UHGV virus genome: UHGV-0240988
DNA length: 14,021 nucleotides
Strand: one strand, 5' to 3'
Source: a virus
The notes beneath the pieces are model-generated. The model saw only the letters and a list, made by a program, of their open reading frames with translations. It did not search any database and was not told where the DNA came from. Shown in pieces: positions 1,167-7,238 of the stretch. The position numbers and the translations under genes are program-made. Numbering within the stretch: the first letter of the stretch is position 1; each line of letters starts with the position of its first letter.

Positions 1167-1754
1167 TCAGAAAGCAGGGTAATCGTTCTGGCTGTAACCA
1201 TAATCATCTGCATGATTCTGGCTTACGTTTTTAGAGCGATTGTCTTTATCTTTGAGATTGGCAACCATGTTGGCGATAGTTTCTGGTTGCTTGCCTTCTG
1301 CCTTTTCTTTAAGGGTTTGACCTGTTTGTGCAATAAACGGGATGCGTATTTCCATCTGGTAGTTGTCTGCGCCAGTCTTTTTGTTTGTGGTTAATACTTT
1401 CTGGAGCACTAACCCGATTTTCTTTCCATGAAATTCAGGTGCAACAAATTTACTGGCGGAAACCATATGCTGCGTTAATTGTCCAATCCCGGCACACCCC
1501 ATCATGGCGTGAACGACATTTGCGCCAAATTTGTTTTCCGTTCCGTCATTTTTCTGAACACAGACGCTAAGATATTGGATTTTACGTCCGTCGTCGGATT
1601 CTCCAGAAAACTCAATAAATTTGGCTCCTTTTTCTGATTGCTTTAGTTCTGCTTCAGTAATGGTAATGATATGGGCGCCAGTTTCGTTAATAAAACCACC
1701 TTGCCCTGCGGTCAGTGCTGCTTCTTCGTTATAAGTAAAAATCACGTTGCTCAT
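1167..1754 (-). CDS. SSB-like / DUF669-type single-strand DNA-binding partner of Sak4
   Basis: 195-aa ORF whose ATG (1754) overlaps the sak4-like stop (ATGA); acidic aromatic C-terminal tail ...DDYGYSQNDYPAF resembling the SSB C-terminal DDDIPF tail; position immediately downstream of a Sak4-type ATPase is typical for this family. Confidence 0.55.
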   Translation of the reverse strand: MSNVIFTYNEEAALTAGQGGFINETGAHIITITEAELKQSEKGAKFIEFSGESDDGRKIQYLSVCVQKNDGTENKFGANVVHAMMGCAGIGQLTQHMVSASKFVAPEFHGKKIGLVLQKVLTTNKKTGADNYQMEIRIPFIAQTGQTLKEKAEGKQPETIANMVANLKDKDNRSKNVSQNHADDYGYSQNDYPAF

Positions 1755-2431
1755 GCGGCGTTTTCCTTAATTTGATGAACATTATTGATGCCGTAGTAAT
1801 CACAAACAGTGGCATCGACGAAAGAGAGATCGTTATCAATCTCATTGGAATCAAACATTCCCATTGGGGATTTGACAGTGTCTGCACCGTTGTTTTTCGT
1901 GGTGAAAAAGAACTGGTCATCGCGGGTAAGAGTGCGAAGAACTATAGTAAACATGCCTTCGACAGTGATTTTCTCGTCCAGCATTTTGCCGATAGTTTTC
2001 ATTTTCACGCGCCCCATAGGGGTTTCTTCGGTATGTGCAAGAAAATAGACTCTCAGGTCATCAGGTGCATCCTGTGCAGCCTTAATCACCTCCCATGCGT
2101 GGCGGCCTATCTCAGTGAATTTATCAAACGATTTTTCTTCTGAGCGGCGCATAAACTCATTGCTCATCACATACTGGAAGTCATCAACAATAACGATTCT
2201 TTTTCCGTATTCGTGAGCACGCTTAATTGCAGCAACTATTACGTCCCATTTGTCAGTGGTAACTACGGTTCCTTTTTTTGCTCTGGCATCCCATGCCAGC
2301 CAGTCTTTTGATTTAAATGGAAGCGGCTTGCCTATTGGTTTTATAAGTATTGCTTCCTCTGGATTGATATTTCTCATGCTGGTTGATTTTCCGGTGCCAG
2401 ATTCACCGAGTATTAATGTCGCAGTTCCCAT
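1751..2431 (-). CDS. Sak4-like RecA-fold ssDNA annealing ATPase (AAA_24 family)
   Basis: 226 aa; Walker A LILGESGTGKST near the N-terminus, Walker B RIVIVDD; size and motif order typical of phage Sak4 recombinases; GAGG SD 7 nt upstream of ATG 2431; occupies the position of lambda bet/exo. Confidence 0.7.
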   Translation of the reverse strand: MGTATLILGESGTGKSTSMRNINPEEAILIKPIGKPLPFKSKDWLAWDARAKKGTVVTTDKWDVIVAAIKRAHEYGKRIVIVDDFQYVMSNEFMRRSEEKSFDKFTEIGRHAWEVIKAAQDAPDDLRVYFLAHTEETPMGRVKMKTIGKMLDEKITVEGMFTIVLRTLTRDDQFFFTTKNNGADTVKSPMGMFDSNEIDNDLSFVDATVCDYYGINNVHQIKENAA

Positions 2432-3092: not shown

Positions 3093-3716
3093 TTATGCGA
3101 CCTCGGAAGGAAGTCCAATCATCTTATTCAAATCTTCTACCCGTAAAGCAGGAAGTGCTGTACTTGCTTTATCTGCTTCTTTTGGTAGCAACTCTTTGCT
3201 TTCAGGCCAAACTTCAATAAGTCGCTTAACTGTTGTGACTGAGTTCAAAGCAGCCCATACATTTGATTCGATATCCTTTTTCTTGGCTTCAAGTTTTTGT
3301 TGCAATGCGCAGATTTCATCAAACCTTTTTGTTATTTCGTGTTCTGCGCTAAACATGCATTTATCTTTGGTCGGAGTAGGGAGCAATATATCTTCGCCGT
3401 TGCCGTCTTTCCCATATGAATACCAGCCAACCCTTCTGCCAGATACAGTCAGATAAATTGAAGTTGAACGGGCATCGCATGAGTAAAATGAACATCCCAG
3501 CTTTTCAAGTTCTTCGCTTATAGCCATTAACTTGGATGATAACTGATCCACTTCCTCAGTTTTCTTTTTACCGCCAAACGCAACAACTCTGGCGTCAAGT
3601 GCAAGCTGGTTCTTTAACTTTGTTACTTCTTCAAGCTCAGTGAAAACCCCAGATTTAATTAAAGCGTTACGAGCGATTTTCTCTTTCATTCTCGTAGTTA
3701 AGCGGATTGATGACAT
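3093..3716 (-). CDS. Hypothetical protein, 207 aa (accessory gene between N and cIII, where lambda has ral/sieB/ea10)
   Basis: ATG at 3716 with GAGGAA SD about 8 nt upstream (track ORF extends to 3776); Lys/Glu-rich, no obvious transmembrane segment; no family recognised. Confidence 0.6.
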   Translation of the reverse strand: MSSIRLTTRMKEKIARNALIKSGVFTELEEVTKLKNQLALDARVVAFGGKKKTEEVDQLSSKLMAISEELEKLGCSFYSCDARSTSIYLTVSGRRVGWYSYGKDGNGEDILLPTPTKDKCMFSAEHEITKRFDEICALQQKLEAKKKDIESNVWAALNSVTTVKRLIEVWPESKELLPKEADKASTALPALRVEDLNKMIGLPSEVA

Positions 3717-3777
3717 ATTAATTCCTCTCAAATAAGTGGTTTGCTGCCTAATTTCATTTTCTGGCGACCAACACAAG

Positions 3778-4050
3778 TCATCTTGCTGTCAGTTGTTTGG
3801 ATTTCCGGTAGCCTGCCGCGTAAAGAGCTACATTTGGAAGACAAGTTGAGCCTTCATATTTTCTGGTCAACGTTGTCAGTGTTATTACTTCTGCTCTCAT
3901 TGCTGGTTTGCGCTTGCATTGCAAGACCACTCGAGAGGGGGTTGGTCTGTGTAGCTTGTCGGAGCTAATCGCCTCCTGACTTTGCAGGTTTGCGCGACGA
4001 GCTCTACGACGAGAAGCTGAGGTGCCTTTAAATTCTGTTTTTCTGGACAT
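3778..4050 (-). CDS. N: N-like transcription antitermination protein (P22 gp24-like)
   Basis: Arginine-rich motif SASRRRARRANLQ near the N-terminus and C-terminus ...VALYAAGYRKSKQLTAR resembling the P22 gene 24 C-terminus as recalled; GGAGG SD 6 nt upstream of ATG 4050; first gene downstream of pL/nutL. Confidence 0.7.
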   Translation of the reverse strand: MSRKTEFKGTSASRRRARRANLQSQEAISSDKLHRPTPSRVVLQCKRKPAMRAEVITLTTLTRKYEGSTCLPNVALYAAGYRKSKQLTAR

Positions 4051-4148
4051 AGATTCCTCCCGAATAAACTTTGGTGATGCAATCTCGAAGCTCCTCCTGA
4101 GACGGTTGCTTCGGCATTGCATCCCACAGCTTATGTGGTTGGGTGATC

Positions 4149-4194
4149 TGGCTTTTCAGCCACGTAGTCGAGAGTCGACGTTGTTTAAAGAGCC
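4149..4194 (-). promoter_or_regulatory. Candidate nutL (boxA-like GCTCTTTAA, 23-nt spacer, boxB-like hairpin UGGCU-GAAA-AGCCA)
   Basis: Read on the minus strand; same architecture and spacer length as the candidate nutR at 7108..7153, with a compensatory G-C to C-G swap in the boxB stem. Confidence 0.45.
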
Positions 4195-4229
4195 TGCCAG
4201 TCTGTTCCATTTAGCTTCCAGCGTCCTGC

Positions 4230-4302
4230 TGATGTGTTTAGTATCACCGCCGGAGGTATTTTCGTCAACACCGCTAGAGATAAAATATTACCGCAAATGG
4301 TT
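4230..4302 (-). promoter_or_regulatory. pL promoter with OL1-OL2-OL3 operators (lambda-like, diverged)
   Basis: Three 17-bp sites TATCACCGCCGGAGGTA (4242-4258), CAACACCGCTAGAGATA (4266-4282), TATTACCGCAAATGGTT (4286-4302) closely resemble lambda OL1-3 as recalled; the minus strand reads TTGACG (-35) ... GATACT (-10) ... CATCAGCAGGACGC as at lambda pL. Confidence 0.75.
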
Positions 4303-4450
4303 ATGTGCATGTTTTTACTATTGATTTATTTTTTTAAAGTTTTGCAGAGCTAGTCTGGATGTGTAGGAGCTGAATTGCGCAATGTGATAAGTGTGATTTA
4401 TATTTATTCAATAAATACAATTCGTTAGGTGTGTTTTTGACGGGCTGATG

Positions 4451-4479
4451 GTAAAAGAAAACCCGGCGCGGAGGCCGGG
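4451..4479 (-). terminator. Rho-independent terminator ending the cI-cassette transcript (tIMM-like)
   Basis: Inverted repeat CCCGGC (4462-4467) / GCCGGG (4474-4479) with 6-nt loop, followed on the minus strand by UUUUCUUUUAC; begins 16 nt after the stop of the 309-aa ORF. Confidence 0.6.
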
Positions 4480-4494
4480 CTGAAGGGGCTCATT

Positions 4495-5424
4495 CTAATC
4501 GATTGATTTAATATCCCATTGAGGTCGAGAAACCAGAGTGTATCTGGGCTTGCCCTTACCAACAGTTTTTTTCAGGAACGTGGCTGTTGCAACGCTTCCT
4601 AAGTGCTTGTTTATAATATCTGGGTCATCTACAGCTTTGTCAATGCTAGCGGTTCTGATATCAGTGTTACCTAAAACTATAAATTCACATTGGCGCTTGT
4701 TAGGAAGAGTTCCCAAAAATATAACGTTCTCAATAATTTTTTCCTGCTGAATGTTATCATTGCTGAGATGTTGATATACAGCTTCAAGCTGTTTTGGCTC
4801 TCTAAAAACGATGCTAAAACCTTGGCTTTTAAGTGTAAAAACTGTTTTATTTTCATGCAGATAATGAATGAATGCTCTGATTTTATCTAAGGCCCGAGAG
4901 TCTAAGTTTTCTATAGCATCAGACAATTCTTCATCATCATTATCCAAGCTTGCCTGAAATATTTTTCTGGCCTTATTAATAGCTTTTGCTACTGGGGTTT
5001 CTTCATCGAATTCAAGAGGAGCATCAGGTCTAAACTCTTCAAGTACGAATCCGAAAGAACCACGGGCTGACGCGGTAATCATGAGATGATTATTTTCTAT
5101 GTTTGGTATCTTGCCTGATGCAGGAAGTGGGCCATTGAAAGAGGTTGCCAAGTAAGCTATTGCATCATTAAAACAAGATATAGCTTTTGTTCCAAATACT
5201 GCTGAAATGCCATGCGTGCCAACTACTGTTGGGCCTCTAAAAGTTAACACAGCATGCGTAGGTTCATGTTCTCGAACGTCAGCTTGTGAAATTAATCGCT
5301 CAACTTTCTCCAGACGGTCTTCTAAGCTTTTTCGGCTAATAGAATGACTTGTTGGCATATTTTTTAATAGATTACTTATTTGCTCGCGCTCACTGAGAGC
5401 GAAAACATAATCATTACGATTCAT
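4495..5424 (-). CDS. Hypothetical protein, 309 aa; distal gene of the two-gene cassette in the rexA-rexB position (candidate exclusion/defence component)
   Basis: ATG 5424 overlaps the upstream gene's stop (ATGA) and has a strong SD GAGGGGG about 8 nt upstream; AT-rich relative to flanks; no Walker motifs or long hydrophobic segments seen; no family recognised. Confidence 0.7.
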   Translation of the reverse strand: MNRNDYVFALSEREQISNLLKNMPTSHSISRKSLEDRLEKVERLISQADVREHEPTHAVLTFRGPTVVGTHGISAVFGTKAISCFNDAIAYLATSFNGPLPASGKIPNIENNHLMITASARGSFGFVLEEFRPDAPLEFDEETPVAKAINKARKIFQASLDNDDEELSDAIENLDSRALDKIRAFIHYLHENKTVFTLKSQGFSIVFREPKQLEAVYQHLSNDNIQQEKIIENVIFLGTLPNKRQCEFIVLGNTDIRTASIDKAVDDPDIINKHLGSVATATFLKKTVGKGKPRYTLVSRPQWDIKSID

Positions 5425-5999
5425 TGTTTGACCCCCTCAGTAGTAGCCGAATTAAGTATAGTCATTGCCACAACATCAAGTTGTGGGTTTAACGGGATTT
5501 GGATAAATCCCTTCCACGACAGATCGCGTCTATGTGCCCACATACTGTACCAATATACAGTCATTTCAACAAGCTCATGACTTGGTAGATTAAGTTCTTG
5601 GAAGTAGGAATCTACGAAAAACTCCTTCTTAACAAAATCATGATCAAATAGCTCTGGCTTTCTACCGATTACGATTGCATCATTATCGCCATTACTGAAT
5701 TGAAAAAAGGTCACAACATCGACATCATTCGGTGGCCTTTTTTCAATAAGTTCAATATGTTCTGTGAAGCTTCCATCTACCCACTGAAAACCTTCAACTA
5801 GCCCTGCTTGAGTGAGTGAAACACGAAAGTTAAGAAAACCCTTAAGGATTTTAATCCTTGCAGGGCTAAGCGAAAAAGTACTAACAAAGCGTACTATATC
5901 CATTTTGTATGGGGAACGAGTATGGCTTGTAGGATCAGCCTCGTCTATTGGGGGGATTAACCCCATCTCATTCCATAGAGAGACAGTTGGTATACTCAA
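5421..5999 (-). CDS. Hypothetical protein, 192 aa (or about 181 aa from ATG 5966); proximal gene of the rex-slot cassette; possible minimal nucleotidyltransferase-like motif
   Basis: Track start is TTG at 5999 (AAGG 9 nt upstream); in-frame ATG at 5966. Contains ...WVDGSF-x14-DVDVV..., which loosely fits the G[SG]...[DE]h[DE]h signature of Pol-beta-superfamily nucleotidyltransferases (inference only). Confidence 0.6.
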   Translation of the reverse strand: MSIPTVSLWNEMGLIPPIDEADPTSHTRSPYKMDIVRFVSTFSLSPARIKILKGFLNFRVSLTQAGLVEGFQWVDGSFTEHIELIEKRPPNDVDVVTFFQFSNGDNDAIVIGRKPELFDHDFVKKEFFVDSYFQELNLPSHELVEMTVYWYSMWAHRRDLSWKGFIQIPLNPQLDVVAMTILNSATTEGVKQ

Positions 6000-6085
6000 T
6001 GCTTAACCTTTATAACGAACTGAATATTCGGCAAAATATTGTTTTTAGGTATTGGCTGCTGTGCTTGTCGGACGTTTATTTCGTG

Positions 6086-6802
<717 letters not shown>

Positions 6803-6809
6803 TTAAATC

Positions 6810-6875
6810 TATCACCGCAGGGGATAAATATCTAACACCGCAGATGTTGGCTATTTTACCTCTGGCGGTGATAAT
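6810..6875. promoter_or_regulatory. OR3-OR2-OR1 operators with divergent pRM (leftward) and pR (rightward) promoters
   Basis: OR3 TATCACCGCAGGGGATA (6810-6826), OR2 TAACACCGCAGATGTTG (6833-6849), OR1 TACCTCTGGCGGTGATA (6857-6873); pR -35 TTGGCT (6847-6852) and -10 GATAAT (6870-6875); cro SD TAAGGAGG follows. Confidence 0.8.
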
Positions 6876-6890
6876 GACTGTATGTACTAA

Positions 6891-7100
<210 letters not shown>

Positions 7101-7107
7101 GTAACCC

Positions 7108-7153
7108 CGCTCTTTGTAACAACGGACATTCGTCCTACGTCGCTGAAAAGCGA
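7108..7153 (+). promoter_or_regulatory. Candidate nutR (boxA CGCTCTTTG, 23-nt spacer, boxB-like hairpin UCGCU-GAAA-AGCGA)
   Basis: boxA-like CGCTCTTTG at 7108-7116 just after the cro stop; hairpin TCGCTGAAAAGCGA at 7140-7153; mirrors the nutL candidate. Confidence 0.5.
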
Positions 7154-7238
7154 GCCCCAAGATATCTGACCAACTCAGGCCATATGCGTTTCCACGCATA
7201 CCAGTCAACTAACTATTCACTATTGGAAATCTTAAGAA

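Follow-up and report, generated by a model that had tools for sequence, protein, structure and literature searches.

In this study, we examined a cassette of two genes, here called A and B, in the UHGV virus genome UHGV-0240988 and related it to the genes found at the same place in phage lambda. The 14,021-nucleotide stretch analysed, referred to throughout as the window, is a lambdoid prophage of E. coli, and the cassette region lies at positions 4451-6085. We found a mobile two-gene cassette to stand in the place of rexA and rexB in a lambda-immunity prophage. The surrounding region (4300-6150) recurs at 100% identity in 8 of 5426 complete E. coli genomes, including O7:K1 strain CE10, in which the RefSeq labels of the pair are 'DUF6932 family protein' for A and 'hypothetical protein' for B. 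The features of the cassette are as follows.

5421-5999, minus strand: gene A, 192 residues, TTG start, DUF6932; a predicted minimal Pol-beta-type nucleotidyltransferase (NTase) with candidate catalytic residues G76-S77, D92, D94 and D130
4495-5424, minus strand: gene B, 309 residues, without a Pfam family; N-terminal alpha/beta region with G122-S123-F124-G125-F126, C-terminal OB-like beta-barrel at about residues 225-297
5421-5424, minus strand: ATGA, overlap of the A stop and the B start, which implies translational coupling
5432-5438, minus strand: GAGGGGG, Shine-Dalgarno sequence of gene B, within the 3' end of gene A
6000-6085, minus strand: spacer between cI and A, 86 nucleotides, with the cI stop codon as the right-hand recombination junction
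4450-4481, minus strand: intrinsic terminator, tIMM-like, with a stem at 4460-4481 (8 base pairs, 6 of them GC) and a T-tract to about 4450; it starts 13 nucleotides past the B stop

The original prediction, made from the letters of the window, had placed two minus-strand open reading frames of 192 and 309 residues between cI and a terminator. We confirm their coordinates, the ATGA overlap, the Shine-Dalgarno sequence and a clean terminator before OL, and add the TTG start of gene A, which is credible because homologues keep the peptide upstream of Met12 (IPxWNxxG) and because RefSeq has the same start. The hairpin at 4460-4481 is the sole minus-strand terminator-like site in 4100-7300. Neither a terminator-like site nor a convincing promoter of the cassette's own was seen in the spacer between cI and A. 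The cassette had also been described as markedly AT-rich. The direction of this bias holds, with 39.3% guanine plus cytosine (GC) in the cassette, 44.1% in cI and 44.9% in the whole window, but its size is about 5 points and not 12-18; a strong compositional anomaly was thus not borne out, and the argument from composition is weakened.

Exact exchange of rexAB between cI and OL

The flanks of the cassette define the exchange. Window positions 6086-7114, containing cI, OR and cro, align with lambda 37227-38255 at 91.4% DNA identity, and positions 4221-4479 align with lambda 35570-35824 at 76%, a stretch with OL1-3, pL and the terminator hairpin. This hairpin, which comes after gene B in the window, is nearly identical to the one that lies directly 3' of rexB in lambda (tIMM). 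The lambda coordinates are 35825-37114 for rexB and rexA, with cI starting at 37227. Lambda homology ceases on one side with the cI stop codon and on the other with the first base beyond rexB, so that lambda 35825-37226, comprising rexB and rexA, has been exchanged exactly for the A-B cassette (window 4480-6085). Matches to other E. coli prophages likewise end at about 6078-6086. The earlier assignment to the rexA-rexB slot is therefore correct at nucleotide resolution, with lambda-homologous sequence on both sides. In line with previous work, in which the interval between cI and N is a known mosaic hotspot (PMC8585504), a comparison of rex-slot contents finds rexAB in lambda and bstA in BTP1 at this hotspot, and the A-B pair itself behind several repressor types.

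The genes at this position are not diverged copies of those they replace. Profile comparisons with RexA and RexB by hhalign returned a probability of 0.1%, the profile of the A family being the one set against RexB, and by this result Rex homologues were ruled out as the identity of either protein, as had been proposed. Also as proposed, A and B have no hydrophobic or transmembrane segment (maximum 19-residue Kyte-Doolittle mean 1.13-1.16) and no Walker A motif.

The immunity region around the cassette comprises these further features.

6086-6799, minus strand: cI repressor, 237 residues, Pfam HTH_3 and Peptidase_S24; first gene of the presumed pRM operon
6800-6899, no strand assigned: OR/pRM/pR region, recognised from repeats and lambda homology, with an OR3-like site at 6810-6826, an OR2-like site at about 6833-6849 and OR1 at 6857-6873, identical to lambda OR1
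4240-4302, minus strand: OL1-, OL2- and OL3-like operators at 4242-4258, 4266-4282 and 4286-4302
4268-4240, minus strand: pL promoter, TTGACG-17-GATACT
3778-4122, minus strand: N antiterminator (PF25694 N_peptide, 6.9e-32), first gene of the pL operon, on the far side of the cI-N variable region

The operators are near those of lambda without being identical, the OL1-like site reading TACCTCCGGCGGTGATA against TACCACTGGCGGTGATA in lambda, and the cI DNA is 91% identical to lambda cI; a possible homoimmunity of the prophage with lambda bears on any challenge experiment. For N, the longest open reading frame in the window has 114 residues and RefSeq gives only a 90-residue 'hypothetical protein' in CE10 (CE10 locus 8479-8751), leaving its true start uncertain.

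Protein A, protein B and their predicted structures

For neither protein had a family been recognised before, a view that stands for B and falls for A. Protein A belongs to Pfam PF22014 (DUF6932), which it matches at 93.6 bits (E = 2e-26, residues 9-168; gathering threshold 27 bits), and the same family is matched by all 49 A homologues that we aligned, down to 36% identity. It also matches PHROG 9194. Invariant among the 49 sequences are G76-S77, D92, D94, D130, W73, Y149-W150, H156 and W162-K163-G164, while Tyr31, within an R-S-P-Y motif, is near-invariant. The first of these residues form a signature of hG[GS] followed by [DE]h[DE]h (D92-V-D94) and a third carboxylate, D130, on the next strand, which is the pattern of NTases. 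A loose fit to this signature had been noted earlier; the motif is upheld as an invariant GS...DxD...D, with the spacing corrected to DGSF-x13-DVDVV from x14.

Structural prediction points in the same direction. In the AlphaFold (AF2) model of A (predicted local distance difference test score, pLDDT, 91), G76-S77 sits in the turn after beta-1, D92 and D94 at the start of beta-2 (93-99) and D130 on beta-3 (129-135), the arrangement known from Pol-beta-type NTases. The best Foldseek match is to the minimal NTase 2rff and is weak (E = 0.05, probability 0.82); the weak structural matches are mostly Pol-beta-type NTases, and the nearest include the minimal-nucleotidyltransferase (MNT) antitoxins 2rff, 1ylq, 8xeh_E and 1no5. 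From the model, A probably has a Pol-beta-type NTase fold; that it is an active NTase is also probable, if a little less so, and the predicted active site is a likely one. No other NTase Pfam family matched any of the 49 homologues, and searches of resistance families and NCBIfam gave no meaningful match for A or B. Searches by sequence for relatives of A among solved structures gave only repeat-amplified matches to PPR proteins, which were rejected as spurious.

Protein B belongs to a family that was previously unnamed. Neither Pfam nor NCBIfam gave a match for it, and PADLOC gave none even at E <= 1; its only library match is PHROG 18731. An exhaustive HMMER search recovered 1469 cluster representatives of the family, of which 611 reached E <= 1e-30; the 150 best of the 1469 showed no domain fusion, and nearly all of these have a length of about 300 residues. 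The model of B (pLDDT 85.5) runs from a helical hairpin through a mixed alpha/beta region with the invariant turn G122-S123-F124-G125-F126 and a helical segment to a five-stranded barrel. This C-terminal barrel, in which strand 3 is joined to strand 4 through a helix, is similar to known OB proteins, consistent, in the predicted structure, with an OB fold. On the strength of this model, the barrel probably binds nucleic acid or an oligonucleotide. As the Rx4-6H motif of HEPN proteins is not conserved in B, which also lacks a conserved histidine, a HEPN identity was ruled out. Among solved structures, sequence searches with B gave nothing better than E = 0.18.

Distribution of the pair and the remainder of the prophage

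To place the cassette in a wider context, we relied on a pattern scan for A relatives with one genome per species, which yielded at least 585 loci. They span Proteobacteria, Planctomycetota, Chlorobi, Myxococcota, Acidobacteriota, Verrucomicrobiota, Clostridia, a cyanobacterial sister group and methanogenic archaea. Across 81 loci, the 80 best of the scan and that of CE10, a B-family gene lies directly 3' of A on the same strand in 78, the exceptions being two contig ends and one shortened B. Viral contigs from IMG/VR agree, with B after A in 80 of 80. At 54 of 74 homologous loci a 4-nucleotide overlap of stop and start is available, and pairwise identity among the A sequences correlates with that among the B sequences (r = 0.76). 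Clustering of neighbouring genes gave HsdR, HsdS, HsdM and prophage genes only, with no conserved third gene. A and B are thus an obligate, conserved unit. The sole full-length locus without an intact B is that of Cupriavidus sp. D384 (locus 6611-6814), where about the first 78 residues of B follow an intact A; this copy may be decaying.

We found the pair in two habitats, behind prophage repressors and inside type I restriction-modification (RM) operons. With regard to the latter, HsdR is encoded within three genes downstream of the pair at 14 of 76 loci, HsdS upstream at 14 and HsdM upstream at 8. Since these Hsd genes lie on the strand of the pair, with HsdS upstream and HsdR downstream, the pair usually sits between hsdS and hsdR. 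Behind repressors, its settings are more varied. Klebsiella and relatives carry an 84%-identical A and its B directly behind a 131-residue RacR-like repressor; YdaS/YdaT and O/P lie opposite the pair, and recE/recT follow downstream of it. A further 26 complete E. coli genomes hold a diverged A-B (A 67% identical in DNA; 195 and 305 residues) in a different lambdoid prophage, where it follows a different LexA-type cI after a gap of 310 nucleotides (for example SUISSEKPC3NDM5, NZ_CP083701.1, locus 5002-6503). In Photorhabdus, the pair is preceded by genes for an HTH_3 protein and for CII, the latter in divergent orientation. On the viral contigs, of which 4 of 80 end just upstream of A, a cI/XRE-type repressor is encoded within two genes upstream in 49 of 80, as the adjacent same-strand gene in 33 of these. 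The repressors are of unrelated types, and the cassette therefore moves between immunity types and keeps landing in the repressor operon. Both habitats are typical of abortive-infection (Abi) or toxin-antitoxin (TA)-like defence genes.

The pair also touches a catalogue of phage defence candidates (PDC), 145 in number, which were derived computationally from genes lying inside BREX, DISARM and type I RM systems (bioRxiv 10.1101/2024.01.29.577857). A check of the locus with PADLOC, as had been suggested, was positive for A and without a match for B. Protein A matches PDC-M63A at 2.2e-10 (38.7 bits), as do 49 of 49 A homologues (best 1.1e-16), moderate scores that fit a sister clade rather than a member. 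Among 51 B homologues, one or two weakly match PDC-M63B (2.7e-4 and 9e-3) and 11, again weakly, match PDC-M32A (best 1.3e-6), by which the B-like partners of PDC-M63 and PDC-M32 may form one superfamily. Judged by these profile scores, the locus is a sister clade of the catalogued candidate PDC-M63, with only its A component catalogued; PADLOC would not call it, because its B goes unrecognised. Beyond PDC-M63A, PADLOC gave no match to other known defence systems, and the set of DUFs for which DefensePredictor gave new validation lacks DUF6932. The earlier proposal of an undescribed defence module is therefore supported in its context, with RM operons and repressor slots, and not in the word undescribed, given DUF6932 and the PDC-M63A candidate.

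Outside the immunity region, the prophage is a mosaic of other parts. Just downstream of N in the pL operon, positions 3093-3776 (minus strand) encode a 227-residue Nmad5 protein (PF18757, 5.9e-71); Nmad5, 'nucleotide modification associated domain 5', is an uncharacterised family with predicted DNA base modification. The left-arm genes (847-1143 and 1751-2431, minus strand) are P22-like and not lambda-like, with Abc2 (anti-RecBCD protein 2, 2.7e-37), an AAA_24 ATPase and then a 195-residue protein without a family. The replication module (7701-10465, plus strand) is not that of lambda O/P and consists of a 258-residue HTH_36 protein followed by a 626-residue primase-helicase with Toprim and DnaB-like domains, an example of mosaic structure on the right-hand side of an immunity region that otherwise resembles lambda. 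A 203-residue AT-rich open reading frame (10548-11159, plus strand; 35% GC) with HNH_3 and AP2 domains, situated between ninB and the gene for the primase-helicase, looks like a homing endonuclease; at this interval of the CE10 prophage, only a 72-residue DUF7301 gene is annotated (CE10 locus 15256-15471), which shows that CE10 itself is not the source of the window. In the nin region, two antirepressor-type genes lie in tandem (12510-13196 and 13265-13993, plus strand), one with ORF6N and the P22 antirepressor C-terminal domain, the other with pRha and the KilAC ANT domain.

Proposed function and relation to known systems

To discern what the cassette may do for a lysogen, we considered how it would be expressed and which of its products could act. 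The explanation we favour is that of an NTase and a regulator in place of rexAB, and we hold its chances, taken as a whole, to be about even. The cassette would most likely be transcribed together with cI from pRM (and pRE) in the lysogen and end at the tIMM-like hairpin; co-transcription of cI, A and B is to be expected from the analogy with lambda and because there is no terminator between cI and A. As the only enzyme of the pair, A would provide the catalytic output, and it would nucleotidylate the 3' end of RNA or of another nucleic acid, in the manner of the toxins MenT and AbiEii. B would restrain or direct A and sense infection, with growth arrest of the infected cell as the outcome. 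For the broader statement that the pair is a defence or Abi/TA-like module we lean moderately towards acceptance, a reading that gains support because pairs lie in type I RM operons and behind unrelated prophage repressors. The specific division of labour, with A as effector and B as regulator, is drawn by analogy with these toxins and appears doubtful.

Several observations weigh against this explanation. B is without a recognisable catalytic or effector domain and has few invariant polar residues, for which reason the role we give it is a guess. Homologues of B were absent from 50,697 sequenced phage records searched by megablast and tblastn, and many homologous loci lie in ordinary-looking chromosomal neighbourhoods. 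The term 'DUF6932' occurred in none of the papers searched, nor did PF22014 or the RefSeq accessions. In the one test of a related system that we found, E. coli NILS69 was challenged with 10 virulent phages, and deletion of its PDC-M63AB made no detectable difference (bioRxiv 10.1101/2024.12.20.629700). Lastly, the NTase gene leads the pair, as it does in MNT-HEPN systems, whose NTase serves as antitoxin; AbiE and MenAT instead encode their NTase toxin second.

The last of these points leads to an inverted logic, as in MNT-HEPN or Hailong, in which B would be a toxic effector and A would hold it off. A might do so by nucleotidylating B, for example at Ser123, or by making an oligonucleotide bound by the OB-like barrel; a phage nuclease, DNA-binding protein or NTase inhibitor would then lift the brake, and B would stop growth. 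The small NTase encoded first and the stop/start overlap both recall MNT-HEPN, MNT antitoxins are among the nearest structural neighbours of A, and B offers a barrel suited to oligonucleotide binding as well as an invariant G-S-F-G-F turn with Ser123. Tyr31 of A, in addition, is reminiscent of the tyrosine-primed synthesis of poly-dA by HalB (PMC13434031). We nonetheless consider this arrangement unlikely, as B has neither the HEPN Rx4-6H motif nor a conserved histidine, neither a transmembrane segment nor a nuclease or other effector fold, and nothing in our analysis points to its toxicity.

Rather than defending the cell, the pair could be a selfish addiction (TA) module that stabilises a prophage or RM island and has no meaningful anti-phage activity. 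The small size of the two genes, their translational coupling, their constant co-occurrence and their carriage on mobile elements and RM islands would be in keeping with such a role, and so would the negative test of PDC-M63AB in its native host. What makes us regard it as rather improbable is that repressor operons and the interval between hsdS and hsdR are the habitat of known Abi genes (rexAB, bstA), PrrC being another, and that many TA systems at such sites do defend, so that the two roles are not exclusive. Housekeeping neighbours at many homologous loci, and the presence of the family in archaea and environmental bacteria, could instead speak for cargo outside defence, with a part in nucleic-acid repair or modification, in nucleotidylation of small molecules such as aminoglycosides or in the control of prophage induction. 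An obligate OB-fold partner, embedding in RM and a repressor slot would be unexpected for resistance or repair genes, however, and no resistance-family, NCBIfam or Pfam function model matches, which renders this option very improbable.

Returning to the favoured pairing of NTase and regulator, its consequences depend on how much of it holds. We would not go further than a tentative suggestion, held below even chances, that A-B is the founding member of a new class of immune modules, with a minimal NTase, a new alpha/beta-OB partner and an undescribed mechanism. If so, A might, for example, nucleotidylate its partner or a nucleic acid of phage or host once the OB-fold sensor permits it, and one system would link prophage repressor operons with type I RM islands. 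Its reach would be wide, as the pair extends from Enterobacterales to Planctomycetota, Chlorobi, Myxococcota and methanogenic archaea and occupies two classical defence habitats. Were defence to be shown, a PADLOC candidate class would be validated, DUF6932 would be given a function and an NTase mechanism would be added to the cargo of immunity regions; were it refuted, a well-documented case of modular exchange at the cI-N hotspot would remain. The locus is tractable, with lambda immunity, pRM, a tIMM-like terminator and a lambda-identical OR1 that open it to standard genetics through a swap with rexAB.

Several known systems resemble the cassette in part. Hailong (HalA/HalB) also consists of two genes, and its NTase is a constitutive negative regulator that makes an oligonucleotide bound by the partner (PMC13434031), a ligand of the kind that the OB-like barrel of B could in principle bind. 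In contrast to soluble B, HalA is a membrane ion channel, and we detected no similarity between A and HalB. AbiE (AbiEi/AbiEii) and MenA/MenT are Abi or TA pairs that have a Pol-beta-type NTase as their catalytic part, by analogy with which we favour our mechanism. Their NTases belong to family DUF1814, for which A and B have no Pfam or PADLOC match, their gene order is the opposite, and their antitoxins are winged helix-turn-helix or unrelated proteins and not OB-fold proteins. With the type VII TA system MNT-HEPN, the cassette has in common a small NTase, of Pol-beta type by prediction in A, that is encoded first and overlaps its partner, as well as the structural proximity of MNTs to A. It differs in that B is not a HEPN protein and has another fold, and in that A is larger, with family-specific N- and C-terminal elements.

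Among candidates with a similar setting, PDC-M63 (Payne et al., bioRxiv 10.1101/2024.01.29.577857) has two genes, a DUF6932-like A and embedding in type I RM, and its copy in E. coli NILS69 is prophage-borne; unlike its partner, the B of the window has no PDC-M63B match. BstA of the Salmonella prophage BTP1 lies directly 3' of the prophage repressor and keeps this association across prophages (PMC8585504), as A-B does, yet it consists of one protein and has an aba anti-element of its own, while A-B matched no PADLOC model except PDC-M63A. The closest counterpart in position is RexA/RexB of lambda. The two pairs have no similarity in sequence or profile and differ in size and order, and A-B contains an NTase-like enzyme that Rex does not have and is without a membrane protein. 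Even so, they share the same slot and frame, 3' of cI and before tIMM and OL, between lambda-homologous flanks, with two genes each and presumed expression in the lysogen.

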